A DNA stretch of 64,000 nt from Amoebophrya sp. A120 (lineage: Eukaryota; Protista; Dinoflagellata), in NCBI GenBank assembly GCA_905178155.1, contig CAJINV010000010.1, positions 3,616,587-3,680,586 of the forward strand, in the 5' to 3' direction. The first letter of the stretch is position 1. Every line of letters starts with the position of its first letter. Positions 4,970 through 62,996 of the stretch are shown here, piece by piece. The notes under the pieces were generated by a model, which searched no databases, was not told where the DNA came from, and worked only from the letters and a program-made list of their open reading frames with translations. Both the position numbers and the translations under genes were made by a program.

Positions 4970-7023
4970 GCTGGTTTCTGGACCGTGCGACATTTGGAAT
5001 GCAGCGCTGACGAAATCGGAGCGCGCCTTCATGCCTATCAATGGAAAATATCTCTGAGGGTCTGGAAGACCGCACGGTTTGTCATGCTCCGCTAGCGTGA
5101 CAATTAAGTCTGTCATGCACTTCAACCAAGCTCGCCTTTGCTTTGTCATGCAGAGATGCCGTTTGTCATGTTGGAGGAGTAACTCAGATGAAACATGTCA
5201 TGCGTGGCCGCCAAGAACTCAAGAGTGTTTATGATAGTCGAACCAGCATGACAAGTTCCCAGACCCCGAGATCATATTTGCGTATGCATACGGCCGGGAT
5301 TGATGCGAAATGCGGAGAAGAAGAACATCCTCTCGTGCTCGTGCTGTTGCCTGGGCGGTGGCGGATCCTTCGGCCGCTGGGCCCTGCGGAAGATGGGTGC
5401 CATGCAGATGCGCGCGGTGCCGGCGGAGGAAGGAAAACGAAAGACCTGGGACTACGCTATGTAAAAACTTATCCTCACCCCAGAGTCACGCTGGCGATGC
5501 TGCTTCTACGCAAATCAACAAGTTTTGGCTGCTCGACGCATGACAAATTTGGGCTCGTAGAAGAGTAGTCCTGGTTTAGGTAGCGAAACTCCATCACAGA
5601 TCGACTCTCTTATGCAGCTTTGCATGACAACTCTGGGGATGTGGGGACTTTTTCGCACAGGATACGGACGACGGCCTGGAGGCGCTGTTTACCAGTTACT
5701 GTCGGGGTCACGAAGGCGGTGACGAACGGGCGTTATGCTGTGCAAAAACGTCCCCACCCCCGAGTTGTCATGCAAGTCTGCATGCTGGAAATGTTTTTCA
5801 TGCGGAGCCTCATGGGAAGCATTTTCTAGACGTGTTTTGGAATTTGTAATGCTCCAATCAGCATGATATACAAGATCTGTGATGGTGCTGATATAGCCCA
5901 AACAGCACTACAATACGAGTCGACATTTGTCATGCAAAACAGCCAAAGCTTCAGCTTGTGGATTTGTCTAGCCGAGTGCCCATCTTGACTATGGGTGGGG
6001 ACGTTTTTATTCAGGATAGGTGTGGGACGTGGTTTATCAAGACCCCTTTCTGGTCACGCTAATGCTGGACGCGCACATCCCCGGTACCCATTCGCCGCAA
6101 ACCTGGACGATAGACATGCGTATCGAAAAGAAAAATCCCCCCTCCCCATATCAAAACGAAAGTGCGAGTAGAAGGGTTTTGGCTTAAGCACTGCCAAGTG
6201 CGAGTAGAAGGGTTTTGGCTTAAGCACTTAGCATGAAAAACGTCCGCGCTGTAGGCCCAACAGCATGACAAACCGTCTGCGCAATGCGGCGGAGCCTCCG
6301 CGGTTGCCTTCCTGCAAGACAGACACGATTTGTGACCGCAAACCAGCATCACAAATTTCCAAAGATATACGTTTTCGGTATGGGGAGGGGAGATTTTTCC
6401 TTTCAATAATGCGCAGGGGAAACTCCAAGCGGTGGAGCTACGATCCCGCGGAAATTACCGCGCCCTGTTTCCTATCCTTTGCAAAAGAAAAGTAAAATGC
6501 CGTACTGCTCTTGCAAGGAGGCATGACAAATCCGATTTCTAAAGCAGGATTAGCATGACAAATATTTCCTTCGTTATGGCTGAGGCTGAGCGAAGTTTTG
6601 ATGCAATTCAGACTTGTGTGCGATCATTCAGAATCAGATTCACTTCTTTATCTTTTGCAATGCACAGTGCATCTACATGGGAGAAAAGGAGGAGACGCCG
6701 ATCCAGCGCGTTCTCGCGATAGTCTGTGACCGGGCCGCCACTCTGGGAGCAGGGGGCGGATGCGGTGGTGGCAGCGCAGGTCGTATGCAAGAAAAAAACT
6801 GTGTAAGTGTAACTTTGTCTTGCAGATGTTGCAATACAGTTACACTTGTCATGCCGGATATGCATCAGAGGCTATTTTAATACGTGTTTTCGCGTAGTAG
6901 CTACGCATGACAGGTTTTTTGTCATGTAAAACAAATCTGTGATGCTGTTCCTACAAAAAAGTTACACTTACACAGTTTGTTTCTTGGATAGGTCGTTGCG
7001 GGAGAGGCGTGAAAGGGAGATGA
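4970..7023 (+). CDS. 5'-truncated gene (or gene relic) of unknown function, interrupted by 6 introners
   Basis: Excising elements 5036-5290, 5453-5664, 5734-6018, 6121-6408, 6473-6666 and 6784-6990 (each plus 5 bp) gives one open frame LVSGPCDIWNAALTKSERAFMPGLMRNAEKKNILSCSCCC...WDVVYQDPFLVTLMLDAHIPG...CGRGVKGR* ending at TGA 7021-7023. No start codon; the upstream sequence is satellite. Confidence 0.6.
5036..5290. mobile_element. Introner family B (diverged)
   Basis: TAT...GGGTCTGG / CCAGACCC...ATA; TSD atgcc/cggcc. Confidence 0.8.
5453..5664. mobile_element. Introner family D (diverged, starts TAC)
   Basis: TIR ...AAAAACTTATCCTCACCCCAGAGT; TSD gggac/cggac. Confidence 0.75.
5734..6018. mobile_element. 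Introner family D
   Basis: TIR TAT-N7-AAAAACGTCCCCAC; TSD ggcgt/ggtgt. Confidence 0.85.
6121..6408. mobile_element. Introner family A with an internal 33-bp duplication
   Basis: TIR TAT-N6-GAAAAATCCCCCCTCCCCATA; TSD atgcg. Confidence 0.9.
6473..6666. mobile_element. Introner family C-like (old, TSD decayed)
   Basis: TATCCTTTGCAAAAGA...TCTTTTGCAATGCACA; flanks tttcc/gtgca; removal plus 5 bp keeps the frame. Confidence 0.65.
6784..6990. mobile_element. Introner family E (single copy here)
   Basis: TIR of about 33 bp TATGCAAGAAAAAAACTGTGTAAGTGTAACTTT; TSD ggtcg. Confidence 0.9.
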
Positions 7024-7806
7024 GATAAACTTTCTGAAAACCTAAAACTAACAATTTTCTAGTTCTATGTTTTATACCGAAAACTGAAAAACTTCGCAAC
7101 ATTTTTCTGTTTCATGGAGTCCTGCTATCAACGAACTGCGAGAAGCGAACTACATACTTACTCTGTCAGTTAGGCTTTTGCTACTTTTTTTTTCGAGGCA
7201 ACGGCAAGCTCGAGAGTAGAATTTTATAGGACTGAGCCAAAGGTGCTTCACCTTCAGCCGAGGAGTGTTTTTCTTCAACTACCGCTAAAAACATCGTGAG
7301 AAGTAGGAAATAAAACCTTCTAACGAAGACCAAGAACCCATTGAAAACAACAACAACAGTCACTCTTGGCGTCTGTTCTTGGGAGGTGGTTTGATGACGG
7401 AATGGTATAAAGTTAATTTTTTCCACCAACAGCAGGGGGTGCAAAAGTGTCGCTCTGTGAAGAGCCAGGCTGTGTTCATGAAGATCGATGCAACTACCCT
7501 GGAGACGCTGGTGCGCGACTCGTACACTGCGGCGTCAACGGCCAGCAAATCGTCTGTTTGTTTCTTCCAGTCCCTCGAAGTCGTGGGAAACAAGAAGTAC
7601 AAGGTTGTTTTTGTTGGTGTCTGTGCACGGCGAAAAAAAAAGAACGACTTACACCGACCTTTTTCAGAGGCCTGTGACACCTTTAAATATACAAAACAAG
7701 CAGTAGGACTCCTGTAACTTGTGGAGTATTGAAGAGATTTAACAACCATATCTGCTCGATAAAAAATTCAGTTCTCACGTCAACAAGACCCTTTTCTCTC
7801 TCAACC

Positions 7807-9474
7807 ATGTCTCGTCGTTCTCGTTCGTTCTCGAAGAAGATTATAGCGGGAGCTGCCGCTCTGGCCATATTAACAGGCGCCTCGAACAGTCACGCGAAAC
7901 CGGCAGTCAAAAGAGATGAAGTAGAATCTCCGGGACCACAACATGCCGGGGAGATCACGACGAGCAAGTTTCTGCCGATCGTAACGGATCCCACCGGGGC
8001 AACGAAGTTGATTGTCGAACAGGACTTCACCTACCCGCTGAAGCAGATGCATGAGCTGATGAAGAAAACTTCGGACGCTCTTTTTTCCTTTGACTTCATT
8101 CCCCTGTCCTTCCGTCCCTTGTACCGCTCGGAACTGAACAACTTGTCGTTGTCCACGACGACCGCGGACGGCCCGCAGTGCACCGCGGACGACTTGGCGA
8201 TTTGGTCGAAGGGCACGGGCAAGACGAACTTCAAGAGCTACATGACCACGTGCGGGAAGCAGTGCTGGGGAGCGGAGGCTTGCGTGGCCACCTGCGTGGA
8301 CAAGGAGGAGCACTACTCGCATATCAAAATGAAAAATCCCCCCTCCCCACATCAAAACGAAATTTCTTATGCTGGATTTGCGTACACAAATCAGATTTGT
8401 CTTGCAGTAGAGGACTGCAGGCCCATATCGTGCCAATGTAGAGAGGTTCTGGCCTAGGCACTTAGCATGAGGAACGTCTATGCTATAGGCGCAACAGCAT
8501 TACAAACCGCCTGCAGTATGGGGCAAAGCCTAGGCCGTTGCTTCTTGCAAGACAGACAAGATCTCTGGTCACAAATCAGCATCACAAATTCCCTGATTGG
8601 TGTCTTTTCGATATGGGGAGGGGGGTTTTTCCTTACGATATCGCAACCCTGCGCGACCTGCTTCGGGCAGCTGGGACAGTGCTCGCGCGACCACTGCATG
8701 CTCCAGTGCATGAACGGATATGCACTGCAAGTATGTCTATGTCTGGAAAGTTGGAACTTGTAATGCTAGCTTTCCATAATTCCTGGGAGATCTGTGTTGC
8801 ATGACCAACAAATAAGTCGCAACCATTTTTGCGATGCGAAAACGCAGTTTCTCATGCAAACTGCCCGTGAGAAAGCGCTATGGAAACTTGTCATGCTGGG
8901 ATGCTGCATTCGGATGTCTTTCCAGCATCCACATTTTAGCATCACAAGTTTCCAGAGGACCCAGACGTATTTGCGATGCATAACGGAAATACCCCGGCGT
9001 GCGCCGCCTGTGAGCGGAAGTACTGCGTGCAACCGTTCTCGGAATGCACGGGAATATCCTGTGCAAAAGTATCGTACTCGTATTAATTGCAATCATGCAT
9101 TACAAATTTTTTACTTAAGGTACCTCAGCATTACAAATTTTACTTCTCATGCTGAGGAAATTTGTAATGCATTTATACGAGTGCGGTACTTTTGCAATTC
9201 ATAGGGAATCGCGGTCGATGACATCCCGAAGGAAATGTATTTGTTCAGATGTATTTCAAGTTCAGCAAACTTGGATTTCTGTGTGTGTTGATGCACAGAT
9301 AGTTCGTCATGCCGAATAAAGATGAAACAAAAACCCTATCGCAGGTTTCTCCATGACCATCTTTCGTCCAAGACGGGTGGCGAACAGGCAGCCGGTCTTG
9401 GCGCGGAGATGGAGAAGAAAACGGGCCCGAAGGCGACGGACAAGAAAGAACCGGCGACGGAGCAGTGGATCTAG
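7807..9474 (+). CDS. Secreted Cys-rich protein (about 270 aa)
   Basis: Signal-like N-terminus (KKIIAGAAALAILTGASNSHA). Removing 3 introners and a GT-AG intron (9237-9344) gives CGKQCWGAEACVATCVDKEEHYSQPCATCFGQLGQCSRDHCMLQCMNGNTPACAACERKYCVQPFSECTG. Spliced length is 813 nt, in frame. Confidence 0.85.
8322..8640. mobile_element. Introner family A
   Basis: Family A TIR; TSD tcgca; excision restores HYSQPC. Confidence 0.93.
8719..8982. mobile_element. Introner family B
   Basis: TIR of the TAT-N4-TGCAAAWATGTCTGGGTCTGGAA type; TSD acgga. Confidence 0.92.
9055..9203. mobile_element. Introner family C
   Basis: TIR TAT-N4-TGCAAAAGTATCGTACTCGTAT; TSD gggaa. Confidence 0.92.
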
Positions 9475-11031: not shown

Positions 11032-12613
11032 ATGAGCCTGCTTCGGTTGTGCGCCGTGTGTTGCGGCGGGGAGAAAGACCAGGCAACTTCGTCAGGCGGA
11101 CCCGTCGTGTTTGGGACGGGCAATAATACTTCTAGCAATGGGACGAACGGTATGAGAGTGCACAACTCCCCCTCCTTCTTATTTCTCATGCAAGATTCCA
11201 AATCCACCCTTTGCCTGTTAGCACTGTTTGCATGACAGATTCCAGAATCCAAAATAGCACTGCAATCCTCTAGAAATTTGTCATGCAGAAGCTGCATCTT
11301 TGCCAGCGCTTGTGTTGCTGTTCATGCAAAACAAGTGAGTGTGAGGGGGAGGGGGAGTGGTGCACTCTCATAAACGGCACATCGACAAGGAATCTCCGGG
11401 CGAGTTTCTCCCCGCAAGCAGAGGGAGAAGCTCTGTCGCCGGCGGAGCAGGTACTTCTAAGGGTTTTGTTTAGTTTGTATTCGTGCAAGAGAAAAAAGAA
11501 TTGCAATGTAAAGTTGTCCATGACAAAGTTGGAAAACTACATCTTCTACCAGATATCCCGTGGTACTGACGACGACCTCGACTTTGGGAGCGACCACGAT
11601 ACAGACAACCCCTTTCACTATGACAACATCAATTCCAGTGGGGGAAAAAGGAGTTCCAGAATATCCTTCGGCCTCGGGAACGTGGTCGAATACGAAATCG
11701 AATCCGAAAATGAAAATGCGGGAAGTCCAGACACCAGTCCGGACAGTGGCGGCCAAAATAGATCGTCGTTTAACAATGGATATCAACTGTAAAAATGTCT
11801 GGGTCTGGAAGATTCTGACACTTGTCACGCACGTTTTGCATGAGCCATGATGTCTGTGATCCATACCCTAGCAATACAGATTTTTTGAGGGCTTCTCGAT
11901 GCCTATTTCGCATGACAAATACCTTCTCAGCGTAGCAAAAATTGCATTCCCTTTGGTACTCATGCAATACAGATTTTTTTGGAATCCAAACGCAGCATCA
12001 CAAGTTGCATTCTTCCACACCCACACACTTTTACATTTGATAATGGAAGTAGCAATTCTTTTGCTCTCGACCCCGCAGAAGACTCCCCGGTTTTGTTGTC
12101 CAGCAACAGCGAGCCTGAGTCAGATGACGGCGCGGATAGGTTGGTGGCGAAGGACTGGGTATTTGTGTATGATCAGGATGATGTTTGTCGTACAAGAACT
12201 GTTTATGTTTTGTTATGTACAACTATGGACACAGTCAACACGGATGGAAGTGCAATGGTTGCGATGCATGCGGTACGGGTTCGGAATACTCGAATTCGCA
12301 AAAGAACGTCGATACGGACTCTTTGGTGCAAAAAATAATTGCACCAAATAAAAATCCTCAGGTCGAAATGCAGAAGCGCGCGATGGCAGAGCGGATGGGC
12401 CGAAATAAGCCGGAGGGGGAACAAGGTCCAGATGGTGAAAAACCAAAAAAGCAAAAACTCCGATTTTTCAAGCGAAGACAGGATTCCATAGTGCTCCCCC
12501 CGGCGCCGGAGAAAGGCTGCTTGAGGAAAAGTAGTGCCTACTCTGCGGATATGGAGTCTCCGGACGGGCTGGCGCAGATGTACGGAATAACCCCCAATTT
12601 AGATTACGTCTGA
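11032..12613 (+). CDS. Hypothetical low-complexity protein (about 260 aa) with an N-terminal Cys cluster and an RVxF-like RISF motif
   Basis: Starts MSLLRLCAVCCGG. Removing 2 introners and GT-AG introns 11451-11552 and 12159-12361 gives a 783-nt open frame ending ...ITPNLDYV*. Confidence 0.7.
11151..11372. mobile_element. Introner family F
   Basis: TIR TATGAGAGTGCACAACTCCCCCTCC; TSD aacgg. Confidence 0.92.
11781..12042. mobile_element. Introner family B
   Basis: Family B TIR; TSD atgga. Confidence 0.92.
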
Positions 12614-14592: not shown

Positions 14593-17500
14593 ATGGCAAA
14601 CTCTTCCCCCGGGCGGTCCGGGGAAAATAATCACAATTCGAAAAACAACTCCGCCTTCCAGCTTGCCATATCAACTGCAAAAATGTCTGGGTCTGGAAGA
14701 TTGCCAGGTTTGTCATGCATATTTTGCATGGCTTATGATGCCTGTAGTGCATGACATAGCAGCACAGATTTTTGGAAGGCTTCCTGATGCCTATTCCGCA
14801 TGACAGATGCCGTCTCCGCGTAGCACAATCTGGGCTCCCCTTGCTGGTCATGCAATGCAGATTTTTTTAGAATCCAAAAACAGCATGACAAGTTGGGATC
14901 CTTCCAGACCCAGACATATCTGCAATGCATATGCCCGGTCGCTCTTCAATAGTACCAGGAACAACACTTCGGGTGGCGGCATGTCCGGATCGAGATCTGG
15001 CTCCCCCCCTCGCGGTATGACAGTGCACAACTCACCCTCCCCGTCATTTGCATAGCATGAACGGCAATACAAGCATAAGCAAGAGTGCCGGTTTTGCATG
15101 ACAAATTTGTACTGGATTGTAGTGCTACTTAGGCTACTAGAACGTGTAATGCAAACAGTGCCAAGAGGCAAAGGGTGAATTGGGTATTTTGCATGACAAA
15201 TGAGGGGGAGGGGGAGTTGTGCACTCTCATACGCGGCCACGGGAACAGCTCGGGAGGGAGTTCTGTTTTCACGCCAGGGAAAAATGACGTGTTCCGCAAC
15301 CAAATCAACTTCGAGAATCAGGAGAACATCATGCAGGCGGGTGCTTCTGGTACCAACCAGCAATTGAACACGATGAACTCTATGGGTGGAATTGCGAACC
15401 AGCAGCAGGGCGGATCATCCTCGAGCAGCAGTTCTTCCGGCGCGGTTTTACCGTCTCACGCGGCAGGTCGAGGAGGTCAAGATAGTGCCAACAACAGCAA
15501 TTCTTCCGCTTTCTACAAGCCGGAGAAGCACCGCGCGGAGAACAAGGAGAGCTTAGTGAAGAAGGAAGTGTCTTTCGCGTTTGCGCTGGTGAAAACCTTC
15601 AACCCGGCGGACGGACACACGATTATGCAATGCAAAAGTATCGCACTCGTAGTAATCACAATCATGCGTTACAAATCTCTATCGCAAGGTAAAACAGCAT
15701 GACAAATCCGACGCGTCATGCAGCTGAGCGAATTTGTAATGCAAGAATTACTACTACTAGTACGATGGTACTTTTGCAATGCATAACGATTGATGAAGAG
15801 CAGTTTGACATCGATCCGTTGCCGTATGACAGTGCGCAATTCCCTCTCCCCCTCATTTGTCATGCAAAATATGCCAACTCCAAATGCTGCCTCGTGGCAC
15901 CGTTTGCGTGACAGATTCTGGAAGTAGCGTAAACAGCACTGTACTACGCGCATGAAGAACTTGTCATGCGCAGGCTCCATGTGCGCTGGTGTCTCTATTG
16001 CTGCTTATGCAATACAAATGAGGGGGAGGGGGAGTTGTACACTGTCATATGCCGCCAGACTCCGCGGAACGGAAGGAGAAGTATTAAATGCAAAAATGTC
16101 TGGGTCTGGAAGATTGGAACTTGTGATGCTACTTTTAGATTCCATAAAAATCTGTATTGCATGACCAGCAAGAGGAGTCTAGTTTGTGCTACGCGGGGAG
16201 GGCGTTTGTCATGCGGAGGAGGCATCAGGAAGCCCCCTCAAAATCTGTGATGCGCGGTCGTGCATTACAGACATCCTGGGTCATGCAAAACATGCATGAC
16301 AAATCTCAGAATCTTCCAGACCCAGATATTTTTACATTTCATAAGAAGGAACGGAAAACAAGAAGAGGCACGGGCGGGTCCGCATTGTATGGGAAAAACA
16401 GGGACATCAACTCTGTCTTCAACCACGAAGACGATGATTCAGATGAGTTCCCCGCGATCTCCGATGCCTTCATGACAAAGGCAAAATCGCCCGTGAAACG
16501 CCTCCCTAGTCGGATCCGGAGGGACAGCATCGGCAACCTCGCGGCCTTTTTCGACCCGATGAGCGAGGAGAGCGAGGACCTTATCAACTGTAAAAATGTC
16601 TGGGTCTGGAAACTTGTGATGCTGGGTGGCGTCTCATGATGAGGCTACAGATGCTGGCTCAGCATGACAAGTTTCTGAGCTCTTAGGTGTTGCCTATTCT
16701 GCATGACAAACTGCGCTTCTGCATCACAGAAAAGCGGAGCTCTTGGGTAATGTGCATGACAGATTTAAGAGTCATGCCAGACAAGCATGACAAACCTTGC
16801 ATTCTTCCAGACCCAGACATTTTTACAGTTGATAGACCTGACGGGGGCCTTGAACCAGGCGAATTTGGAGCTGCAGAACCAACACTTATGGATTGCAAAA
16901 ATGTCTGGGTCTGGAAAGTTGGAACTTGTAATGCTGGCCTTGCATTCCTGTGAAATCTGTATTGCATGACCAAGAACAGTGGTAGCCTCTCATGTCGTAC
17001 AAAAACGTAGTTTCTCATGCGGAGTTCGTATGAGAAGGCGTGCTGCAACCTTGTCATGCTTTCCGGCATAAGGAAGTGACTTCCTTGTGCACATTTTAGC
17101 ATCACAAATTTCCAGACCCAGACATATTTGCATTTGATAACACTTTTCGGGCACTGATGTGTCGAATAACGTGGAAAAAAGGCGCGTTTCGGTCATCAGC
17201 GACAACAGTGACGACGTTTTCGCGGTGGGCGAGGAAGAGGCGAGGAGAAGCAGCGCGGCATCGGGGATGCAGGGTATAGGGAACGAATAGAACTTCTTGT
17301 TTCAACTACCCTTGCGATGTGGTCTCATTTGCATGATGACGTTTTGCAGCTAGCAACTTCCTACTGTGTTTGATGTTCGTGTCTTCTTCACTGAAGACAA
17401 ATAATTTTGAATGAGATAGAGATTCCGATATTGACACAAAACTATCAGGGACTAACGCGAACATTAACCAGCAAGAGCGGAATTCGGACTCTTTGTTCGG

Positions 17501-20500
17501 GGAAAACGAGCCGGACAAAATCGACCACATTCCGGAAGAGCCGGAGAAGGACGAAGACTCGTTTTTCAGCGGGTTAAACACCGAATTGTCCTCTATTCGG
17601 CAGGTCACCGGTACGAACGACTTCAACCAGCCTAACATCACCTTCCAACAGTCGAACTCCTCGCAGCATTCCATGCACAACCGCGCGCGGATCCTGACCC
17701 CGAACTCCCAACTGGGGACCCCGCGGAGCATCGACGGCAGCTCCAAACGACGACGGGTGAACAACCAGGGTAGCATATCGTATGTGAAAACTTGCCCACA
17801 CCATAATCACGATGGGAAATCTGCTAGACAAATCAACCAGCTTTGGTTGCTGCGCATGACAAGTTTGGCTGTGCAGTGTAATCCCGTTGAGCTAGCTCCA
17901 GCAGCATGACAGATCTAGCGAATCGTGCTGATTCGAGCGTCACAAATTCCGAAGCACAGCTAGAGAATGCGTCTCATGTATGACGCTCCGCATGAGAAAC
18001 ATTTTGACCATGCAGATTTGCATGACAGCTATCGGGTGGGGACGTTTCTACATAGGATACAGCAGGGACATCACGGGGCAGGTGAAGTCTATGGCGGATT
18101 TGATCGAGGACATGGATCCGGGACAGAAAAATCTGAGCGACCACTTCGACGCTGTGGCGGTATCTGAGTGTTTTATGTGCCGCTCGACGAGCACCTGATG
18201 TGAGTTATCATTCATCTAAATGCAGCACAAACAAGCTGCTCGTGTTCGTCCGCAGGCATAGGTCGCATGTTGTCATGTATGTTTTTTTGATTTTGTGTTT
18301 TTACTTTATCAAATCTAAGGAAAGTCGTTTTTTATCAGGTTCAGCAATCCGAGGAGGAGATCCGGCGTAAGTCTGTGATCAAGACCGAGGGCCGGGACCT
18401 GCTCGACGACGTTTCTTCCGTCGGTGACGACGAGGAGTGCGACACGCCTTCTTTCGGGAATTTTAAGTCTCCGAACAATAACCAGGAAAATAATAACCAG
18501 AAAACAAATCGGCACTCCTCCCGGTCCCGCGGGCGGACGTTCTCCTCAATTCCGGACGATTTGAAAAACCGAAACAGCAACATGCTCGCGGGAAATGGCT
18601 TGAAATTGGATTCAGAGAAAGCCCGGGATTCGCAATTTTCCAGTTCGGGTTGGGACAGCTCGGATATGAATGTTAACCGGCGGTCCTCTGTCTACTCGCC
18701 GAATCAGGCGGATCCTTTCAACTTCCAACCCGCGCCGGCACACTCGGTATGCATTGCAAATATGTCTGGGTCTGGAAGGTTGAAACTTGTGATGCGCATT
18801 TCAGAACACAGAAAAATCTCTCATGTATAGGCAGCCAAAGTTGCTCACTTTCTGTCACCAAAGTCAGGGATTTGTCATGCGGATTCGGCATTGCGAACGC
18901 TTCTCGAAACCTGTGATGCTAGAGCTTCCATGCCAGACCTTCTGTGTCATGCAAAAGCAGCATGATTCTTCCAGACCCAGACATTTTTGCATTTGATACT
19001 CGGTGTACGGAAACAATAACTCACCCGCGGCCCGATCGGACCGCGGCGAGTTGTCGCAATCGGACCGGAATTATGAATTGCAAATATAATTTCTGGGCCT
19101 GGAAGGATGCAAGGTTTGTCATGCTTGTCTGGCATGACTGAAAAGTTTGTGATGCGTGTCCAAGAAGAAACCCTTTTGCTTGTCATGCAAGATCGCAGTT
19201 TCTCATGCGGAAAGTGCACCACTAAGCAACGCAGATATAATTTCTCCTGCTGTGCTGTGCATTACAGAGCATTCGCTATTCGAAAACCAGCATGAGAAGT
19301 TTCCAGACCCAGGTTTTTTGTATTGCATAGGAATAACCGGCATAATACTTCGCGTCACAGCAACAGTCTGAACAACAGCAAACTGGACATCGACCTCCCG
19401 CCCGAGAAAAACAGTATCAAAGTCAGCAGAGAAGTGAAAAACGCGCTGGCAAACCGGCCGATCACCATCATTCCGCCAGACCAGTTGGCTGCGGCGCGGA
19501 ACAGTATGGACTCGAATTTGTCTGGTAGGAATAATAATGCTGTGCAGCCGTTGATGAATGTAGAGAACAACAACCGCAGGGCGTCGCGCGCAAGCAACGA
19601 GGAGTGGGACCCGCGGAGACGGTCCTATCAAAAGGAAAAATCCCCCCTCCCCATATCGAAAACGAAATTTGTGATGCTGTATTTGAGTACACAAATCAGG
19701 TTTGTATTGCAGAGAGGCATTGCGGCCAGATCCCCAGGCTAGGTAGGGGCGCATGGTTCTAGTTGTGCAGCATGGCAAACGGCTCCCCTTTAGGCCTCAC
19801 AGCATGACAAATCGCTTCCATAATGGGGCGGAAGTTTCTGCCCTTGTCTTCTTGCAAGACAAATGCGATCTGTGACCTCAAATCAGCAACACAAATTTCC
19901 GGAAACGTACCTGTTCGATATGGGGAGGGGGGATTTTTCTCTTTGATAGGTCCGCTTCTTTCATGATTGGCGACGTTTCCGCTTTGAATCAGACAGGAAC
20001 GAATAGTAACAATCGAGAAAACTCCGGCTCTCGGATGAACAACAGCCAGCTGAATCGGTCCAACCTTCTCTCTCCTCGGGCGAACGAGCAGATTGGTGGC
20101 GCCACTTCCAGTCGAAGCCGGGTGGGAATGTGGAAGTCGCCGATCCAGCAGAACCCGAATCGGTCGCTGTGGGGGATTAGTTTTGAAGAATTTAAGGAGA
20201 GGATCGGGGTGTCCGATGCGGACTTAGAGAAACACATTATTGACGCGATCGAGCGGTATAAAATGCCATTAGACGAATATGGGAGTGTCAGGATCGAAAT
20301 CAACAAAATCGAAAAACTTGTGATGCATAAAATCGATACCAGTTGGAGCCTCAGTTTCCAAGCGGCGCATGACAAATTTTAGGAGCACCAAAATCCAGTC
20401 TGTCATGCTGTTTGGGCAAAGGAGACTGCTCTTGTGATGCTACTCTGGCAGCAGATCGCCTTCCCCTAAACAGGCTTGCAATCGGGTTCATTTGCTTGCT

Positions 20501-23500
20501 CCCCAACACAGGCCATGCGTGCTCTACATTTTATGCATTACAAATTTTTATTCGATTTTGTCGATTTCGATCCTGACACTCCCATAACGAAATCGCGAAA
20601 GGAGCAGCGGTTGGGGGTGCTGGTGGATCTGCAGGAGGGGGAGGAGCAGCAGCTTCAAGTGCAACAGCAGGAGCAAGTAACTCATCATCATCTTCTTCTT
20701 CATCCGCAGCAGCAGCAGCGGCGTCCGAGCTAACGTCTCTCCACCTGGACGCAAAGAAACGCGCGGTGGGATTGTTGCCGGCTTACCCGCCCCTGTCGGT
20801 GCTGCAACAGCTGAACGATTGGCAGATCAAATCGGAGGATTTGCCCGTGGTGCGGAAGTTGCTAGCGGCGAATAATTCTGCTACCGCGAGTGGTGTGGAG
20901 AAGGAGCAACATGAGCAGTTTGTGGAGCAACTACGGCAAATCGCTTTTCTCGCGATAGAAAAAGTATCCACTGCAAATATGTCTGGGTCTAGAAGAGTGC
21001 GAGATTTGTCATGCTAGTCTGGCATGAATCTGAGCTCTGTATTGCGTGGCCAGGAACATCTCCTCTTGCCTGTCATGCGAAAGCGCAGTTTCTCATGCGG
21101 ACTGCACAACACAGAGCAACCAGAAAACCTGTTATGCTTGGCGGCGCATCACAGTGCGCTTGTTATTCACCGACAGGCATCACAAGTTCCAAGACCCAGA
21201 CACATTTGCAATGCATAAAAAGGGGTGATGGACAATGCGAAGCAGCACTACGACGAGAAGTTGCGGGTTTTTTACGAAAAGGAATTTTCGAGTTTGGAAA
21301 AAGAGATCGGGGAAAAGAAGGAGAAGGTGGAGAAACTAGCTGTGCATAAGGAAAAACTCGCGAAATTATTGCAGCAGAAGAACAACATTGAACAGACTTC
21401 GAAAGCGGAAAAGGCGCGGAACGATAGACGGAGGGAAGAAGTGAAAAATCAGAAAGAGTACGGGAAACAGGTATAGAATTTTCGAAGGATTTTTGATGTC
21501 GCATGGAAAATAGATGATCTGCATGATAAAAGCTTTTTCTCAGCTCTTATACGTGTTTTACTCTCGTTCTTCGTGTCGTGGATCGGATGAAATTGCTTCA
21601 TTTTTACTCTTGTGAAAATCAGCTCGAAATCCGGATCGCGGCGGCCCGTGCGCAAGTGAACCAGAGGCGACAAAACGTGAATCACCAGCTCGAACAGCAC
21701 TCGCTCATGACCGGAGCTGCTAGTGGGAACAACAACACAACTAATCTGAACCTCACGTCCCAAACCACGCTCACCAACGTCCTCCACCCGAATGCGCCGC
21801 AGCCAACCGAACAGGACCTGAAAGCGGCAAAAAAGGCGATTCAGATCCTACAAAAGGAGAATGAATCGCTGAAAAAACAGAACGAGCGGAAAAAACTCTC
21901 CCGCGACCTTTCGAAGTGGAAGAAGGGGTTAGGCAAGGATGTCGGGAACAAAAATCCGGACAAACTCTTTCTGTACCGAGACAGCGGCTTGGGGCACGAG
22001 CTGACGTTTACCGAAGGGTCGCTGCGCTGGAGTTTCACGCCGAGGGTGTCCGAGTTCTGCCCGTTGCGGTTGAACAACGACCATCCAAACGCGAAAAATC
22101 TGGCGAAAGACATGTACAATGCCTGTTGGGTGAAGTCGCGCGGGACTATTTTAGCGGCGGCGGTTTCGCCCAGAAAAAACGCCCCGAGTTCGCCTACTTC
22201 CGGCACAACTACCGATGGGCAATCCTGGCTGGTGATCTTCGGGCACATATCAAAATGAAAAATCGACCCTCCCCATAGCAAAAAAGGGATTTGTGTAGCA
22301 TGATTTGTGATCACAAAAGACGTTGTCATGCTAGAAGGGAAGAGATGGACCGACTGTAGTACTGGCTGGCGTTGGAAAACCTTGCATCTTCAACATGACA
22401 GGACGCAACTGGAAGCGGAGAACAGCATGACAGATTACCTGCAAGCGAGGGGGGCGCAGCTGCGTCTCTTGGCCTTCTAGCAAAACAACTCGACTTGTGT
22501 ATGCAAATACAGCATCACAAATTTACGTGTCGATATGGGGAAGGGGCATTTTTCCTCTCAATAGCACAGACTCGCCCAGATCGACCGGTTTTTGAAAGAC
22601 CTGGGTGGGATATTACAATGAAAAATGCCCCCACCCCAGCACTTGGCAGCATTTGTATTGCAAACCTTTCCAATGGAAACATTTCCCGTCTTGCATATAT
22701 CAGCATCACAAATGTGCCACTCTGAATAGCTCAAATCTGTGTTGTAAAGGAGCCCAAGAGCAGGCAGATGTGTTGTGCAGCAGATGCCTTGCGTGCCTAG
22801 ATTCTGCATCAGAGAGGCTCATAGTCCTTTCATGCAAGACAAAAAGCTTTCATTTGGAAACTTTGCATGAGAAACTTTTGCACGGGTTTGGGGGCAGTTT
22901 TCACTGTAATTCGGGATTACGGGCGTCACGTTTGAGGACCACGAGTCGTTTCTGATTTTCCACGTCATGGTGACCCCCAGCATCGAAGTCAACCCCTACG
23001 GCTTTTCTGAGGTTTACCCTACCCCCGGGAGCACGAAGCGCGCGTACTGGATGTTTGATTTGCGGTTGCCGCGGTCGTATCAACTGCAAAAATAAATGCC
23101 TGGGTCTGGAAGAGTGTAAACTTGTCATGCAGGTTTTACATAACCCATGAGGTCCGGCATGCGGGATCTAGCATGACAGACTCTACTGCGAGGTCTCTGT
23201 CATGCCTCGACTGCATGAGAAACTCGAAACTCCCTCCCAACTTGGTCGAAAGTGGACAGCTTTCGGCACTCATGCAACACAAATTTTTGCATGATTCCGA
23301 TTTAGCATGACAAGTTGCAATCTTCCAGACCCAGACCTATTTGCAGTCCATAAGTCGGAACTCATAAGGTTCGCCGCACACATCCACGACGTGGACTGGA
23401 TCTCGAAGTTGCAGTGCACCGCAAAACCGACGCCGGGGGTGGATCAGAAGATGGTGCAGACGGCGATTGACGATTGTCTGGTATAGAACAAGTTAGAGCT

Positions 23501-24234
23501 GATAGTACAACTAGTAGTGTGTTTGTTCTGCGTTTTTTCATCTTCATGAATATGCAGGACTGGAGTTTGTCATGCGGATACTATCATTCTGTTTCTGCGA
23601 AGATAAACTTTTTAAATTCTATCAGGACGAGATCAAGTCGGACACGTCTGCCGCCGCCCGCGCCAGCCGGTCCGCCCCGGGGGCGATTCGCAGCTTTTTG
23701 CAGAGCATCTACAAGCAGGTAAAGGAGAAAATGCTGCGGGACTTGAAACACTCGCACCCACAAGAACACCAGGCGTACCTGCGTCACAAAAATTCCTTCT
23801 TCGGCCAGCCCGTCGCTGGGATGCAGCTGCAGGAGCACCCGCAGGCGGGTGCTACTTCGCTGACCAGCATGGCCACGAACGTTGGGTATAACGGCGGCGG
23901 AAGTAGTGGCGTGGGGTCGATGAACTACAGTAGGGGTGGCATGACCGGGACGTCGAGCCATGCTGGGAATTTCGGTACGGGCGATTTTTACGCACAAAGC
24001 TCTCGGTCGCACATGGGAGGTTCCATGCAGGGTAGAGGAGTAAGCGGCACAAGTTCATCTTTTTCCCGAGCCGGACATCATCATCCAAATGCATCCTCCT
24101 CCCGTGCCCACCCGTATTCCCGCCCAGATCGATCGCAGATCTCGTCGCCGGAGAGGTCGGTGTTGCAGATGCTGATGCCAACCAGTGCGGAGAAGCAAGA
24201 GAGGGAACGACATCAGCAGCCATTGGTGCATTAG
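14593..24234 (+). CDS. Probable divergent KNL1/Spc105-like kinetochore scaffold (about 1568 aa)
   Basis: Removing 16 introners and 4 GT-AG introns (17274-17448, 18160-18338, 21471-21622, 23481-23625) gives a 4707-nt open frame. It has SLVK-KEVSFA...VKTF (SILK/RVSF-like), a disordered middle with EDLTG/RDITG motifs, ISFEEFKERIGV (Spc7-domain-like), a coiled coil and a globular C-terminal region. The gene model is solid; the family call is inference. Confidence 0.6.
14669..14931. mobile_element. Introner family B
   Basis: Family B TIR; TSD tgcca/tgccc. Confidence 0.9.
15016..15231. mobile_element. Introner family F
   Basis: Family F TIR; TSD cgcgg. Confidence 0.92.
15624..15785. mobile_element. 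Introner family C
   Basis: Family C TIR; TSD acgat. Confidence 0.92.
15825..16049. mobile_element. Introner family F
   Basis: Family F TIR; TSD tgccg. Confidence 0.92.
16082..16343. mobile_element. Introner family B
   Basis: Family B TIR; TSD agaag. Confidence 0.92.
16582..16834. mobile_element. Introner family B
   Basis: Perfect 26-bp TIR TATCAACTGTAAAAATGTCTGGGTCT; TSD gacct. Confidence 0.93.
16887..17139. mobile_element. Introner family B
   Basis: Family B TIR; TSD acact (no G, so no GT or AG boundary is possible). Confidence 0.93.
17776..18059. mobile_element. Introner family D
   Basis: Family D TIR; TSD tagca/cagca. Confidence 0.88.
18748..18998. mobile_element. Introner family B
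   Basis: Family B TIR; TSD ctcgg. Confidence 0.92.
19072..19329. mobile_element. Introner family B (variant TIR)
   Basis: B-like TIR; TSD ggaat. Confidence 0.9.
19626..19948. mobile_element. Introner family A
   Basis: Family A TIR; TSD ggtcc. Confidence 0.93.
20278..20586. mobile_element. Introner family G
   Basis: Long TIR TATGGGAGTGTCAGGATCGAAATC-ACAAAATCGAA; TSD acgaa. Confidence 0.93.
20965..21217. mobile_element. Introner family B
   Basis: Family B TIR; TSD aaaag. Confidence 0.92.
22248..22563. mobile_element. Introner family A
   Basis: Family A TIR; TSD gcaca. Confidence 0.92.
22611..22911. mobile_element. Introner family H
   Basis: TIR TATTACAATGAAAAATGCCCCCA; right end is ATT; TSD tggga/cggga. 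Confidence 0.87.
23078..23352. mobile_element. Introner family B
   Basis: Family B TIR; TSD ggtcg/agtcg. Confidence 0.9.
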
Positions 24235-35835: not shown

Positions 35836-35836
<1 letters not shown>

Positions 35837-58131: not shown

Positions 58132-61100
58132 ATGCAGTCGGCGTCGACACGAATGCACTTCGACTCGGTTGTCGCATCACCTTGCGTGACCGAGCTGGAG
58201 CTGCTTTCCCCCTGCTCCCCAAGCTTCTCCTCCTCATCAACAGCCCCGCATAGTAAACGGAGAAAAGACCACCACTATCCATCAGCCAGACGGCCTACCT
58301 GTGGATTTGCCACCAGAATGACCTGCCTCGGCCTATTCCTGACGACCTCCACAACCACAGATCAACTGCTCTTTGTCTCCGGAAATAACTCCGCTACTTC
58401 TTCCAGCAGCAACAAAGCGACCCCCTCACCGCCAAAAGTCGGCGTCAGGCGGCAAGCCCGGTCTATCAAAGGGAAAAATGCTTCCTCCCCATATCAAAAC
58501 GAAACTTCTGATGCTGGATTTGTGTACACAAATCCGAGCTGTCTTGCTGGAGAGCACTGCAGGCCAATACTAAGGGCGGGGAGAAGGGTGTTGGCTTAGG
58601 CACTTAGCATGAAAAACGTCCGCGCTGTAGGCACAACAGCATGACAAATCGTCTGCACAATGTGGCGGTTGTCTGTGGAGTTGCCTTCTTGCACGACAGA
58701 CGCGATTTGTGACCACAAATCAGCATCACAAATTTCCGAAAGTGTACCTTTTTGGTATGGAGAGGGGGGATTTTTCCTTTCAATACGGTCTCCCCAGTCG
58801 TTTGTTGTGGAAGTCACGGCGCAAAAATTGGACGATGATGACAAATATCAAATGCAAATATGTCTAGGTCTGGAAGGATGCAAGACTTGTCATGCATGTT
58901 TTCTATGCCCCATGAGGCTTGGAATGCAGGACCTAGCATGGCAGGTTCTGCGACGTCTGTGCCACGGCTATCCTGCATGACAAACTGCTTCTATCTAAAC
59001 TTGTTCAAAAGTGTACAGCTCTTGGTAGTCATGCAACAAAAATTTTTGTACGATCGAGACGTAGCATGGCAAGTTCGCGTCCTCCCAGAACCAGACATAT
59101 TTGCAATGCATAACAAGTCGTCCTCTAGTGAGGAAACTAGTGCAGAGGCAGCTGCTCTGGCTGCGAGAAATACTAAACGGGCAGCTTGGCGGGCGAAAAG
59201 TAGGGGGAAAAAGCAAGACAGTGCAGAGACGGACGAGGATAATGACAGAGTGGTGCAACACGACGTCATCCCGGAGATGGACAAAGATTACGCGGAGAAT
59301 ATCCTGAGCAAAAACGTTCCCACCCCATAGTCAAGACGGGGACTTAGCAACACAAACCTGGAAGTTTTGGGAGTCACGCATGACAAGTTGCACCCCGTAG
59401 TGTAGTGCAGCTTAGCAAGGACAGTCGCATTACAAATCCATCTCCTCGTGCTGTTTACAGCATTACGAATTGATTCCAAAGCACGATAGAAAATGGCCCT
59501 CATGTTTGGGATGCGCATTACAAATGTTTCTGCAATTGCAAATCTGCATGACAGCTCTGGTGTGGGGACGTTTTTACTCAGGATAGAAAAGCACGGCACC
59601 GACCCAGAGTCCGCGATACGAGCGGCGACGGACAATTTAGTCGAATCTTCCGAGCTCGCATACCAGAAGCAGCAAAACAAGAAGAAGCAAGTATTACAAT
59701 GAAAAACGCCCCCACCCCTCAATTGCCAGCATTTGTACTGCAAACCTTTGCAATAGAAACATTTCCCGTCTTGCATATCTCAGCAGCACAAATTTTCCAT
59801 GCTGAATAGCTCGAATTTCAATTTGTGTTGCGAAGGGGCCCAACAGCAGCCGGATCTGTTATGCAAAAGGCACCTTGCGCACCTAGATTCTGCATCAGAA
59901 AGGCTCGCAATCCTTTCATGCAAGACAAAAAGCTTTGATTTGGAAACTTTGCATGACAAACTTTTATTCGGGGTTGGGAGCATTTTTCACTGCAATAGCA
60001 AGAGAAAAAAATGCAGTCGGAGAACGAGAGAACGAGGCTACCGGTGTTGCTAGGAACGGGGAAAAAATTATTCGAGTGCAAGATCTATGCATTGCAAAAG
60101 TATCGTACTATCTAGTAGTAAATGCAATACAAATTTCCTCAGCTGCATGAGAAACAAAATTTGTAATGCGGATCTACGTATCACAAAAAGATTTCGATTT
60201 GTAATGCATGACTGCAATTACTACGAGTGCGATACAACTTTTGCGCAGGATAAAATCCCGCCGCCAATCGGCGACGATATGGAGCGGATTTACTCCCTAG
60301 CGAAGGCGAAACTCGCGGTGTTGGAGCATGTCTGTGTGAAGCTACCGGATACAAAGGAAGACGCGGACAAAATCCACTCTGTTGACTCCGAGTACGATCT
60401 GTGTTTCGAAAGGGGGGAAGCTTTGCTTCGGCCAAGAGCAGCGCTTCTGAATCCAAACGTCGGACACACACCGCAGCACACGAAGCAGCAGCAGGAGTTA
60501 ATACCCTCGGATCAGATAGTTTTGGCCAGGGATAACAAGAAGGAGGATCATGAGAACAGTAGTAGTGCAACATCTTCTTCCAACACCCCACATGATACTA
60601 CTATTCTGTCCCTGAGAAAGCGGATGTGGCTGATAAGATCCCTAATCGAGGGGAAAGATTACGAGCAGGAGGATGTGGACAAGAAGTTGCAGAAGGTGAG
60701 AACGGAAATGGACGAAATGAGCAGGGAACAGGGGATTATTACAACTCCGGATGACGAGCAACTGGCGAATAGGAATACCGATGCCGTCACAGCACAAAAC
60801 AGTAGAAACGCGACTGATAGAAATTCTGCACCGGATTCTCCTTCGTCCGCCTCCTCCGAGAACTCCAATGTGATGGTCACGGCTAAGGAGTTCTCAAATG
60901 TTACATCATTCTCAACTGTTACACGAATTTGTGACGCAAAAACAGAAAGAGGGAAAGTGGCAAGCTTGCAAGTTCTGACCCTATGCCGTTCCAGCACCTG
61001 CGGAGGCTTGCCTCCAAAGCTACGCTGGACAATGGCAATGTCGGTGCGGTTGTTTTAGCATCACAAATTTGGCACATCAGATTCTGATGCTGTTTAGCAG

Positions 61101-62996
61101 TTCGAAAATTTGTCATGCGAAGCAGCGTGATCGTTTGGCAGCTCATGGTCATTCTGCATGGCAAATCATGTAAGAACAGTTGAGAACGTAAAAACATTTG
61201 AGAACGCCATAGCGGCAGCGTACCAGCCGAAGCAAGCGAGCTCTTTGATTTATCAGGAAGAAACGGGGTACTACGTCCCGAAGCCGGAGAAGCCGCCCAA
61301 ATACCCAGCTGAATACGGGAAAAAGCGGAAAACGGATTTTGTACCCGACATTGCGGTAGCGATTCACTTTCTCAACGGGAAAAAGAAAATCACCTGCGAA
61401 TGCGCACGGCCGACGGAGGAGACAATAAGGTTTTTATCCTGAGTAAAAACGTCCCCACACCAGAGTCAAGATGGGAGATCGGCTAGACAAATCAACCAGC
61501 TGTGTTTGTTTCGCATGACAAGTTTCGTCCCCTCGTAGCGTTGTCCTGTTTAGGTAGTTCAGCAGCATCACAGATCTAGACTATCATCTTGATTCTAGCA
61601 TCACAAATTCCACGACGCGACTAGAAAACGCTTTTCATGGGGCTCCGCATGAGTAACATTTTGAGCTTGCGGATTGGCATGACAACTCTGGGGTGGGGAC
61701 GTTTCTGCTCAGGATAGTTTTTGGTGGATGTCGACACAGTCACCGGCCTGGGGGAAAAAAAATTGTTGCTCGCGAAGGCCGTCTCGCCGGACAGGATCGT
61801 CTCTCCCGCGTGCTGCAGCTTCAAGGGAAAACCCGCGCCAGAGGTCTGTGGACAATTTTGTAATGCTGTTCTTGGACGACGAACATCAAGTCGATCATTA
61901 GTACGATTTGTATTCGCTATTCAATGAGATCATGATAAACAACAAAATCAAAAACGTCAATCAGGACCTCCTCTGGCCATTGCTGCACTCCCAGGATTTC
62001 TGCTCTCGCTACCAGCCGCAGCAATACAAGCAACTTTCCGGCATCACAGATTCCGAACTCTACACAAGATCCTGGTGGACGACAGAGTTTTGCCTCGGTA
62101 TGTATTGCAAATATGTGTCTGGAAGGTTGCAACTTGTAATGCTGTCTTTGGATTCTAAAAACATCTGTGATGCTGATGTTGCATGAACAGCAAGAGAAGT
62201 TGATTTTGTGCTACGCGGAGACGGCATTTGTCATGCAGTATAGGCATCGGGATTCAGGAAGCCGAAGCCCTGAAAAAGTCTGTGATGCTAGAGCATGCAT
62301 CCACAGACATCATGGGTCATGCAAAATGTGCATGACAAGTCTGGCACTCATTTTCCAGACCCTTACATATTTGCAATGCATACTCGGGGCAATCACCCAG
62401 TTCCACGTGACAAAGTCCGGGCAGGCGCACGGGTCCAGGATAGGCTTGGGTTACTTGAAGCCGGCGGATTTGATATGCAATGCAAAAGTATCGTACTGCA
62501 GTTATGCATCACAAATCCAGATGTTACGCATTACAATTTCCATTTCTGGTGCTGAGGAAATTTGTATTGCAATCACTACTAGCACGATGCTTTGGCAGTT
62601 CACATTTGACGATGACAAACAACGCGCTGTTGCATATCAGAAGGAAAAATCCCCCCTCCCCATATCGAAACGGAGATCTGTGATGCAGATTTGTGGTCAC
62701 AAATCAGCTTTGCCGTGCTAGAAGGGAAAAGATGCGGACTGTAGTGCCGATTGGCGTGGGAAAGCCTTGCATCTTCAGCATGACAGGAGGCAGCTGGAAG
62801 GGGGAAACAGCATGACAAATCGCCTGCAAAGAAGGCCACAACTGCGGCTCTTGGCCTTCTAGCATGACAAGTCGATTTGTGTACTGAAATACAGCATCAC
62901 AAATTGCGTTTTCGATATGGGGAGGGGGGATTTTTCCTGTAGATATTGCAAACTGTGGAGGGCGGGACGTGCTCGAGTCAATTTCAAGTTTTCACG
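58132..62996 (+). CDS. OS-9/ERLEC1(XTP3-B)-like ER lectin with MRH (PRKCSH) domain(s); 3' end unresolved
   Basis: After removing 10 introners and GT-AG intron 61844-61964 the frame reads FC...RSWWTTEFCLGAITQFH...IGLG...LQTVEGGTC, matching the MRH signature WWxYEFC..QFH..LG..GTxC. A weaker first repeat may be present (C...EYDLCFERG). A GTAT donor lies at 62997; the next exon was not identified. Confidence 0.65.
58464..58785. mobile_element. Introner family A
   Basis: Family A TIR; TSD cggtc. Confidence 0.92.
58846..59112. mobile_element. Introner family B
   Basis: Family B TIR; TSD acaaa/acaag. Confidence 0.9.
59300..59585. mobile_element. Introner family D
   Basis: Family D TIR; TSD gagaa/gaaaa; sibling of 28075-28353. 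Confidence 0.9.
59692..59997. mobile_element. Introner family H
   Basis: Family H TIR; TSD gcaag. Confidence 0.92.
60086..60252. mobile_element. Introner family C
   Basis: Family C TIR; TSD agatc/aaatc. Confidence 0.88.
60884..61211. mobile_element. Introner family J (single copy here, starts TAA)
   Basis: TIR TAAGGAGTTCTCAAATGTT...TTCTCAACTGTT / AACAGTTGAGAA...AACATTTGAGAACGCCATA; TSD acggc/gcggc. Confidence 0.85.
61435..61716. mobile_element. Introner family D
   Basis: Family D TIR; TSD gtttt; opposite orientation to 5734-6018 and 39987-40284. Confidence 0.92.
62099..62382. mobile_element. Introner family B
   Basis: B-type TIR; TSD ctcgg; excision restores WWTTEFCLGAITQFH. Confidence 0.92.
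62474..62604. mobile_element. Introner family C (right end ACA)
   Basis: Family C TIR; TSD tttga. Confidence 0.87.
62635..62945. mobile_element. Introner family A
   Basis: Family A TIR; TSD ttgca. Confidence 0.92.

Follow-up and report, generated by a model that had tools for sequence, protein, structure and literature searches.

Amoebophrya is a marine parasite, and some 30,000 non-canonical introns of the introner kind are known from Amoebophrya sp. A120. According to Farhat et al. 2021 (PMC7789003), these A120 introners have ends of the form TAT, seven nucleotides and AAA, carry 5-bp repeats and are validated by RNA-seq. Direct repeats of 3–5 nt over the exon/intron borders are also described for them, and Gozashti et al. 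2025 (PMC12130899) give 58 A120 introner families. Comparable introns exist elsewhere. Class 12 of Polarella glacialis (bioRxiv 10.1101/2020.10.14.339549) has the same geometry with a 5-nt duplication and is spliceosomal; its donor combines the last repeat base with the first base of the element, and its acceptor comes from repeat positions 3–4. AG and G have to come from this repeat (NNAGG), whereas the A120 repeat is arbitrary and ends in AGG in 3 of 115 cases. The introns of Fritillaria borealis (PMC13326754, PMC11282704) are, as in A120, MITE-derived and mostly non-GT-AG, with inverted ends and a duplication. They are handled by an adapted U2 spliceosome, which shows that such adaptation is possible, but Fritillaria keeps preferred AG-AC/AG-AT ends and U1, whereas the A120 elements have no fixed terminal dinucleotide and no U1 was detected in A120. 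Finally, the non-conventional introns of euglenids and diplonemids (PMC11282704, PMC12621601) share paired ends and repeat-like junctions with those of A120, but they pair CAG with CTG (positions +4..6 and -8..-6) and leave circular products, whereas the A120 pairing is TAT/ATA.

We analysed a stretch of 64,000 nucleotides of A120 DNA, hereafter the window. To judge from their sequence, its elements are the A120 introners already published by Farhat et al. 2021 (PMC7789003): they share ends, inverted repeats, 5-bp repeats, families and RNA-validated non-canonical removal, and do not differ in kind from what the available sections describe. The initial annotation of this DNA had thus overstated the novelty of the intron system. 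The sections of Farhat et al. and Gozashti et al. at hand do not give the position of the border, nor do they state a fixed N-TAT register, a GTAT match or a shared internal motif; the contribution beyond published work is the register of the cut.

Results

Scoring and BLAST identified 61 intact TAT...ATA elements in the window (57, plus 4 with a mutated end or a decayed repeat), of 131–325 bp and 16,125 bp in sum. They form 10 families (24, 7, 7, 5, 5, 4, 4, 3, 1 and 1 members), and 7 of the 8 multi-copy families are present in both orientations within + strand genes. The 5-bp direct repeat is perfect at 47 of the 61. The initial annotation had counted 63 complete elements of up to 328 bp; its 47 perfect repeats and about ten families stand, and the two decayed copies found in addition to the 61 (55262-55419 and 60982-61211) may or may not be the ones it had included. 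When at least 12 of 16 terminal inverted matches and a perfect 5-bp direct repeat are demanded, 43 TAT...ATA pairs pass in the window, against a mean of 0 in five local shuffles. A candidate at 55311-55658 was dropped, as its inverted ends are weak and its removal was judged out of frame. Positions in the window are as follows.

5036-5290, 5458-5664, 5734-6018, 6121-6408, 6784-6990, + strand: five elements, first gene region
8322-8640, 8719-8982, 9055-9203, + strand: three elements, cysteine-rich protein gene, 285-codon frame
11151-11372, 11781-12042, + strand: two elements, with GT-AG intron 12159-12361
14669-14931, 15016-15231, 15624-15785, 15825-16049, 16082-16343, 16582-16834, 16887-17139, 17776-18059, + strand: first eight of 16 elements of a long gene, fit to transcript-like contigs (X2, below) rough only
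18748-18998, 19072-19329, 19626-19948, 20278-20586, 20965-21217, 22248-22563, 22611-22911, 23078-23352, + strand: last eight elements of the same gene, X2 lengths fit exact removal of element plus 5 bp
17274-17448, 18160-18338, 21471-21622, 23481-23625, + strand: GT-AG introns of the 16-element gene (14669..23625)
28075-28353, + strand: one element, KIFBP gene (25339-28423), with GT-AG introns 26044-26205 and 27031-27128
29909-30163, 30584-30897, 31422-31697, + strand: three elements, RAD23
29459-29563, 29681-29843, 30319-30450, 31140-31290, 31845-31967, + strand: GT-AG introns of RAD23
37982-38287, 38341-38606, 39096-39365, 39987-40284, 41376-41632, 41764-41982, 42192-42498, 42565-42831, 44052-44363, 44458-44710, + strand: ten elements, gene of 1906 aa (36639-45161)
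45425-45683, 45799-46103, 46180-46486, + strand: three elements, 276-codon frame
51698-51950, 52302-52517, 52569-52893, 52978-53244, 53826-54136, 54195-54456, 54846-55167, 55759-56009, 56633-56782, + strand: nine elements, frames of 1057 and 356 codons
55251-55463, + strand: probable GT-AG intron, ends inferred from the frame
58464-58785, 58846-59112, 59300-59585, 59692-59997, 60086-60252, + strand: five elements, 527-codon frame
60982-61211, strand not assigned: decayed element, repeat 2/5
61435-61716, 62099-62382, 62474-62604, 62635-62945, + strand: four elements, frames short and less certain

The left end is TAT at 60 of the 61 elements (logos) and is followed by seven variable nucleotides and at least three A, positions 11–13 being A in 51–55 elements each. 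Deviant ends occur at 39096-39365, which starts with CAT, 22611-22911, which ends with ATT, and 62474-62604, which ends with ACA. In all 31 elements folded, at least 10 of the first 20 nucleotides pair with the opposite end (median z -6.6); element 28075-28353 has a terminal stem with a z of -3.4. The repeat letters show no sequence preference. Among 296 elements chosen without a repeat criterion in loci L001–L161, 215 have a perfect 5-bp repeat, while other lengths account for 0–4 elements each (6 bp for 1), except 2 bp (25). Canonical U2 introns have GT/GC-AG ends; as claimed initially, sliding the boundaries yields such ends for few elements, here 3 of 61 (5734, 6784 and 19626), with AT-AC for 2, and 8 of 115 in a larger set. 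In that set neither G at +1 (42 versus 38.8 expected) nor AG at -2/-1 (11 versus 8.5) is enriched.

The spliced transcript-like contigs of X2 lack the element plus 5 bp at all nine checkable sites (28075 and eight elements from 18748 to 23078); record 4, for example, joins 28069 to 28354, a gap of 284, or 279 + 5. These contigs are cDNA, because GT-AG introns are missing from them as well as the elements, and one X2 piece matches the 3' end of intron 12159-12361. The annotated protein P0001, which is 100% identical to a window exon over a 363-aa query and whose A120 label confirms the suspected link with Amoebophrya, equals the 1906-aa gene model and agrees with it at 10 of 10 element junctions. 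Exact removal of the element with one repeat copy, proposed initially from the letters, is thereby borne out at 19 checked sites (9 in X2, 10 in P0001), in either orientation, without GT-AG ends and beside coexisting GT-AG introns; it extends to copies with altered ends (39096 and 22611). An in-frame cryptic GT-AG pair lies within 15–20 nt of 25 of the 61 elements, yet 19 of 19 checked junctions correspond to the element plus 5 bp, and cryptic site use was rejected. From the raw RNA runs X8 and X9 came 174 and 5 reads, almost all of which matched only in part and carried no information on the junctions.

A retained element introduces an in-frame stop in 61 of 61 cases (best-guess frame), in agreement with the initial annotation. 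Removal of the element plus 5 bp leaves at least 50 open codons on both sides in 52 of 61, versus 30–32 of 61 for removal with 3, 4, 6 or 7 bp; the claim that the frame is restored every time holds to this extent, but frame alone cannot prove the short genes at the ends. In the first gene region, removal at the first four elements creates a single 162-codon open frame; at 5458-5664, where the ends are intact and the repeat letters match at 1 of 5 positions only, it still restores the frame. A protein search for a homologue of this gene found none. The RAD23 and KIFBP frames were identified correctly: RAD23 has the domain order ubiquitin, UBA, XPC-binding, UBA, and KIFBP has a Pfam KBP_C match and an orthologue labelled A25 (P0003, 52% identity) that is continuous across the 28075 element site. 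The MRH motif, also claimed, was not confirmed in Pfam or PDB searches.

The region 37700-46800 contains three mismatched repeats. Two P0001 junctions with mismatched repeats inform on the position of the cut: residue 831 is coded by position 5 of the right copy and residue 1234 by position 3 of the left copy, which places the cut after the third or fourth repeat base (register 3 or 4). The cut thus appears to lie within the repeat, 1–2 nt outside TAT and 3–4 nt outside ATA, a bracket given by two junctions of one annotated protein and which an aligner preference for GT would mimic at 39987. An X2 contig branch at 22611 fits a register of at least 1 (312 predicted, 312 observed), and a PDB homologue of one gene in L075 weakly favours registers 1–4. 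The donor profile of 13 window GT-AG introns, 10 of which begin with GTAT, fits register 4 alone (+3.0 bits, versus -1.65 or less), and if the register is 4, the elements have U at +2 and match the host donor consensus at +2..+4, as expected of canonical U2 introns. The 3' signal is weak (-1.70 bits versus -2.41 for the next register). We consider register 4 most likely, that is, an intron N-TAT...ATA-NNNN with TAT at +2..+4, as in host GTAT donors. Table S4 of Farhat et al. has T at +2 in all nine commonest A120 non-canonical types, and likewise for A25. GTAT was the commonest donor (13 of 55) in the loci with a motif-blind, noisy intron finder; in masked loci the hexamer GTATAG was not enriched (23 versus 20.3) while GTAAGT was (57 versus 32.3), and ORF-end donor counts, also noisy, did not confirm GTAT as a donor. 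No register was singled out by a codon-likelihood and a stop-codon test, applied to 37 and 50 mismatched repeats, and protein searches with the first gene and the L045 exon, meant to tell register 3 from 4, found no match.

Discussion

The reading that we favour, with somewhat more than even confidence, is that a U2-type spliceosome which needs neither G+1 nor the final AG removes the elements, with cuts placed at a constant distance from the terminal hairpin. The element would be inserted, and 5 bp of exon duplicated, by a DDE transposase encoded elsewhere; in the pre-mRNA, pairing of the inverted ends would draw the two splice sites close to each other, and after the cut four bases of the left repeat copy and one of the right would most likely remain. 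TAT would then stand at +2..+4, as in G-TAT donors of the host, where U6 could read it without U1. With TAT read at either end and 1 + 4 adding up to the 5-bp duplication, the exon would be restored exactly whatever the insertion and its orientation. A120 keeps U2, U4, U5, U6 and 83 of 89 spliceosomal proteins; an Rfam search of the window gave no matches. The reading is weakened by the absence of G+1 or AG enrichment, the weak 3' signal, the lack of a branch-point consensus, the mixed annotated ends and variable sites in Farhat et al. and the removal of the CAT-starting copy at 39096, and U6 would have difficulty pairing with a donor held in a long stem. An internal motif common to the elements was ruled out as the branch point, as it is present on either strand and its distance varies. 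The initial proposal of a machinery that reads structure and TAT/ATA termini agrees with removal without GT-AG, but the cut apparently lies inside the repeat and the CAT and ATT copies are removed. If the N-TAT...ATA-NNNN register is true, the reported jumble of splice sites becomes one rule, a spliceosome can lose G+1 and AG, nearly invariant elsewhere, while keeping U+2 A+3 U+4 and the hairpin, and it becomes clear why a transposon whose stagger is 5 bp can enter an exon at any point and in both orientations at low cost.

A separate non-spliceosomal nuclease that reads the terminal stem and places its cut a set number of nucleotides from the stem base, with a ligase joining the exons, is rather unlikely; the same holds for its precise form, a second splicing machine that measures 1 nt + 4 nt from the TAT/ATA hairpin base independently of the repeat. 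The strong stems, the repeat without sequence preference and the use of both orientations agree with it, as does element 5458, which fits any ruler-type cut. Such a pathway has been proposed for the non-conventional introns of euglenids and diplonemids, and euglenid introns leave as circles. The U1 that was not found in A120 would also fit, but its loss would hit GT-AG introns too. Removal of the element plus 5 bp implies an odd net 3' overhang, of either 1 or 3 nt if the register is 3 or 4, whereas RNase III leaves 2 nt. The U2-type spliceosome is likely the better explanation because at register 4 TAT aligns with +2..+4 of ordinary GTAT donors. Were the nuclease to operate, a ruler matching the 5-bp stagger of the transposase would neutralise exon insertions by the tens of thousands.

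Somewhat more doubtful still is a spliceosome whose cut slides among six equivalent repeat positions. In its favour, the Fig. 3 legend of Farhat et al. (PMC7789003) calls the splice sites variable and the annotated ends in Dataset S2 are mixed; where repeats are perfect, however, annotated ends are arbitrary. In trusted window frames 8 of 11 repeat mismatches are synonymous (three first-gene elements of uncertain frame omitted) versus 0.33 expected without constraint, which suggested coding selection on both repeat copies, but the loci did not repeat this excess (6 of 13 single mismatches), as a fixed cut predicts (0.43–0.50), and both informative P0001 junctions fit one internal register.

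Loss of the elements at the DNA level, in a copy of the genome that is expressed, as for ciliate internal eliminated sequences, would agree with the transposon anatomy and with precise removal along with one repeat copy; it is very improbable, as the X5 contigs, which retain GT-AG introns, run from exon into the element at 28075 with a unique-sequence depth of about 26–27 (contigs drop rare variants, so a small share of excised DNA could go unseen), and as X2 lacks GT-AG introns together with the elements. Least probable of all are reverse-transcriptase template switches, of which direct repeats beside strong structure are a known signature and which entirely cDNA-based evidence would invite: retained elements bring stops in every case, including in RAD23 and KIFBP, whose frames reach conserved sequence, and the form assembled in X2 is the spliced one.

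As for their origin, the elements class by their traits as short non-autonomous TIR DNA transposons (MITEs): they are short, with inverted ends, a duplication of fixed length, no coding capacity and many copies, summed X5 depth reaching 180,886 in element bins versus 26–36 in unique bins. No transposase came to light in the four longer copies (457–834 bp), which have no stop-free stretch above 137 codons. IS3EU/GingerRoot transposons (PMC10045372) share TA..TA termini with the A120 elements, but their duplication is usually 6 bp, in contrast with the 5 bp found here (215 versus 1 of 296). One decayed family member (55262-55419), at most 90% identical to the loci copies, makes up the interior of the probable GT-AG intron 55251-55463.

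Anatomy of the elements

By scoring and BLAST we identified 61 intact elements of 131–325 bp, about a quarter of the window, and two decayed copies. The initial annotation had described 63 complete elements of 131–328 bp; the system itself and the lower size limit hold, the count becomes 61 intact elements plus two decayed copies, and the upper limit drops to 325 bp. Its other figures, about 10 families and 47 perfect 5-bp repeats, were reproduced (10 families; perfect repeats flank 47/61). In a scan of the window, 43 TAT...ATA pairs matched at 12 or more of 16 inverted terminal positions and were flanked by a perfect 5-bp repeat; five local shuffles gave a mean of 0. Both ends consist of TAT, seven variable bases and a run of As. 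Seven of the eight multi-copy families are found in both orientations, within host genes that all lie on the + strand. When every second element was folded, the ends paired in all 31 (median z -6.6). Pattern scanning of metagenome contigs returned 161 loci, all of one assembly prefix, in which the elements, picked without use of the repeat, have a perfect 5-bp repeat in 215 of 296 cases and again occur in both orientations.

Removal of the elements as introns

As first annotated, retained elements disrupt the reading frame: in the best-guess frame, each of the 61 introduces a stop codon. With the element and one repeat copy (element+5) taken out, both flanks stay open for 50 codons or more at 52/61 sites, so that restoration of the frame, claimed for every site, is supported by frame alone at most of them; removing 3, 4, 6 or 7 bases with the element has this effect at only 30–32 sites. 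Element+5 removal yields frames of 1912, 1057, 588 and 527 codons. The sequencing run X2, whose RNA nature is only a guess, is without GT-AG introns and is therefore cDNA. Its record 4 splices 28069 onto 28354, exactly 279+5, and the A25 KIFBP orthologue is continuous over element site 28075, which bears out the restored KIFBP frame of the initial annotation. X2 record lengths agree with exact removal at eight further elements (1307 = 2878 - 1419 - 152; 48 = 48; 312 = 312). In addition, P0001, an annotated protein labelled Amoebophrya sp. A120, is identical to the 1906-aa model across 10/10 junctions. As first annotated, sliding the boundaries gives GT/GC-AG for only 3/61 window elements (8/115 in the pooled confident-frame set). 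The elements are introns, and we regard their anatomy, symmetry and exact removal as established.

X2 contigs break at 22611–22911, the only element in its gene whose right end is ATT. Coexistence of spliced and unspliced forms at this site would produce such a break, a hint that efficient removal is helped by ATA at the end. Removal also takes place in copies with CAT at the start or ATT at the end, and the ends are thus not strictly required. The raw RNA runs X8 and X9 give cover too poor for use. About 160 X8 reads match at 23268–23336, part of an element, and continue as unrelated sequence: some other locus gives an abundant transcript in which a related element is retained.

This intron system is real, as first annotated, but not new. 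Farhat et al. (2021; PMC7789003) describe A120 as carrying 29,850 repeated introns. Their ends start with TAT, followed after seven variable bases by three As; they have 3–5 nt repeats and RNA-seq support, the border position being left undefined in the sections available. In Dataset S2 of Gozashti et al. (2025; PMC12130899), most of the A120 rows available (21 of 58) are classed as TIR DNA transposons without a known family, and the same work describes a family that carries Copia-like ORFs. Other Amoebophrya strains, AT5 and the Karlodinium strain among them, use GT-AG (PMC12005148, PMC11453091, from the portions available). The observation is thus confirmed but already known. As to the mechanism, the accessible text of a 2024 review (PMC11282704) goes no further than suggesting an altered spliceosome, and our search, largely outside the subscription journals, found no paper settling the removal mechanism or the cut position.

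Position of the cut

The cut cannot be placed where the repeat copies are identical; mismatched copies can place it. We denote by c the number of repeat bases retained from the left copy. In P0001 the fifth repeat base at element 39987 comes from the right copy and the third at element 41764 from the left copy, so that c = 3 or 4, provided that c is constant. At 41764 a GT on offer at c = 1 is left unused; the 39987 half of the bracket is weaker, because a GT-preferring aligner would yield the same result. The X2 branch at 22611 is compatible with c of at least 1. In the loci, elements interrupt the following genes, among others:

L075:3511-4047, UDP-GlcNAc dehydratase-like gene (solved homologue PDB 2gn4)
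L018:3029-5344, SNF2 helicase gene

The solved homologue of the former weakly favours c = 1–4. Two protein searches bearing on c = 3 versus c = 4 returned no match. Elements 30584 and 41376, informative at position 4 of the repeat, would tell these two registers apart.

At c = 4 the intron reads N-TAT...ATA-NNNN. GTAT starts 10/13 GT-AG introns of the window (9/12 without the decayed-element intron), and c = 4 is the one register at which their donor profile agrees with the element ends (+3.0 bits; the others score -1.65 or below). The acceptor profile, too, agrees best at c = 4, though weakly. With an intron finder imposing only GT and AG, GTAT is the top donor in the loci (13/55; GTAN 31/55) and occurs in 7/11 window controls. 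Other results count against this reading: GTATAG is not enriched in masked loci, in which GTAAGT is, and the repeat has no bias toward G at +1 or AG at its end. ORF-end donor counts were noisy, and neither the codon nor the stop tests were discriminating. In Table S4 of Farhat et al. (PMC7789003), which aligner habits could shape, the nine top A120 types all have T at +2 and the nine A25 types are all TT. Polarella class 12, as described in the part of the preprint available (bioRxiv 10.1101/2020.10.14.339549), has the geometry of c = 4, with an NNAGG repeat. The register is a modest addition to the published system, part of which Fig. 3 and S19–S25 of Farhat et al. may already display.

Mechanism of removal

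We lean, by a small margin of confidence, towards a U2-type spliceosome whose cuts lie 1 nt upstream of TAT and 4 nt downstream of ATA. Insertion, with a 5-bp stagger, would be the work of a DDE transposase; the inverted ends would pair in the pre-mRNA, and the spliceosome would cut at these two positions. Farhat et al. did not find U1 in A120, which keeps U2, U4, U5, U6 and 83/89 spliceosomal proteins (PMC7789003). Work on tunicates shows, as far as available, that a spliceosome can come to accept ends other than GT-AG and that reduced U6 methylation favours U+4 (PMC13326754). Removal by a nuclease/ligase route like that of euglenids (PMC12621601) is improbable, if the strongest of the rivals. 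Element 5458 has intact ends and only 1/5 matching repeat letters, yet a 162-codon frame is restored, which hints, from sequence, that the repeat itself may not be read by the removal machinery. A spliceosomal cut that slides within the repeat is slightly more doubtful still. Junctions made by template switching and excision at the DNA level are both unlikely; run X5 retains introns, and its sequence runs into elements.

Relation to transposons and to ordinary introns

The elements share TA..TA ends with IS3EU/GingerRoot, whose duplication, in the portion of the source available, is usually 6 bp (PMC10045372); because that of the elements is 5 bp, we do not assign them to that group. Four longer copies have family ends, a perfect 5-bp repeat and unrelated filler:

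L028:632-1465, longer element
L058:3862-4492, longer element
L057:571-1051, longer element
L030:3314-3770, longer element

No long open frame was found in these copies (457–834 bp). An internal GCATNACA motif, common to all families, is directed inward and lies some 32 or 41 bases inside the ends, often in copies 31–33 bases apart, an arrangement that putative transposase binding sites would show. Counting both strands, its density is 12.9 per kb in elements and 5.5 per kb within GT-AG introns (6 matches in 12 introns, the decayed-element intron excluded); 11.2 kb of coding DNA has no copy and 13.8 kb of intergenic DNA a single one. Some ordinary introns may therefore have begun as elements, or the motif may be a general mark of introns; 27031–27128, 29459–29563, 29681–29843 and 23481–23625 are among those that carry it. 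A probable GT-AG intron at 55251–55463 has a decayed element as its interior, which either turned into a canonical intron or landed in an intron.

Other features of the window

Positions 1–4750 hold 38.6 copies of a 123-bp unit in a perfect tandem array (100% matches), of which at least four frames are free of stop codons. At 44899–45161 the last part of the 1906-aa gene and the next open frame overlap; the latter bears three more elements, and the two are possibly a single gene with an unrecognised junction. Every modelled gene from 7810 to 63000 is on the + strand, in agreement with the unidirectional clusters reported for Amoebophrya (PMC7789003).
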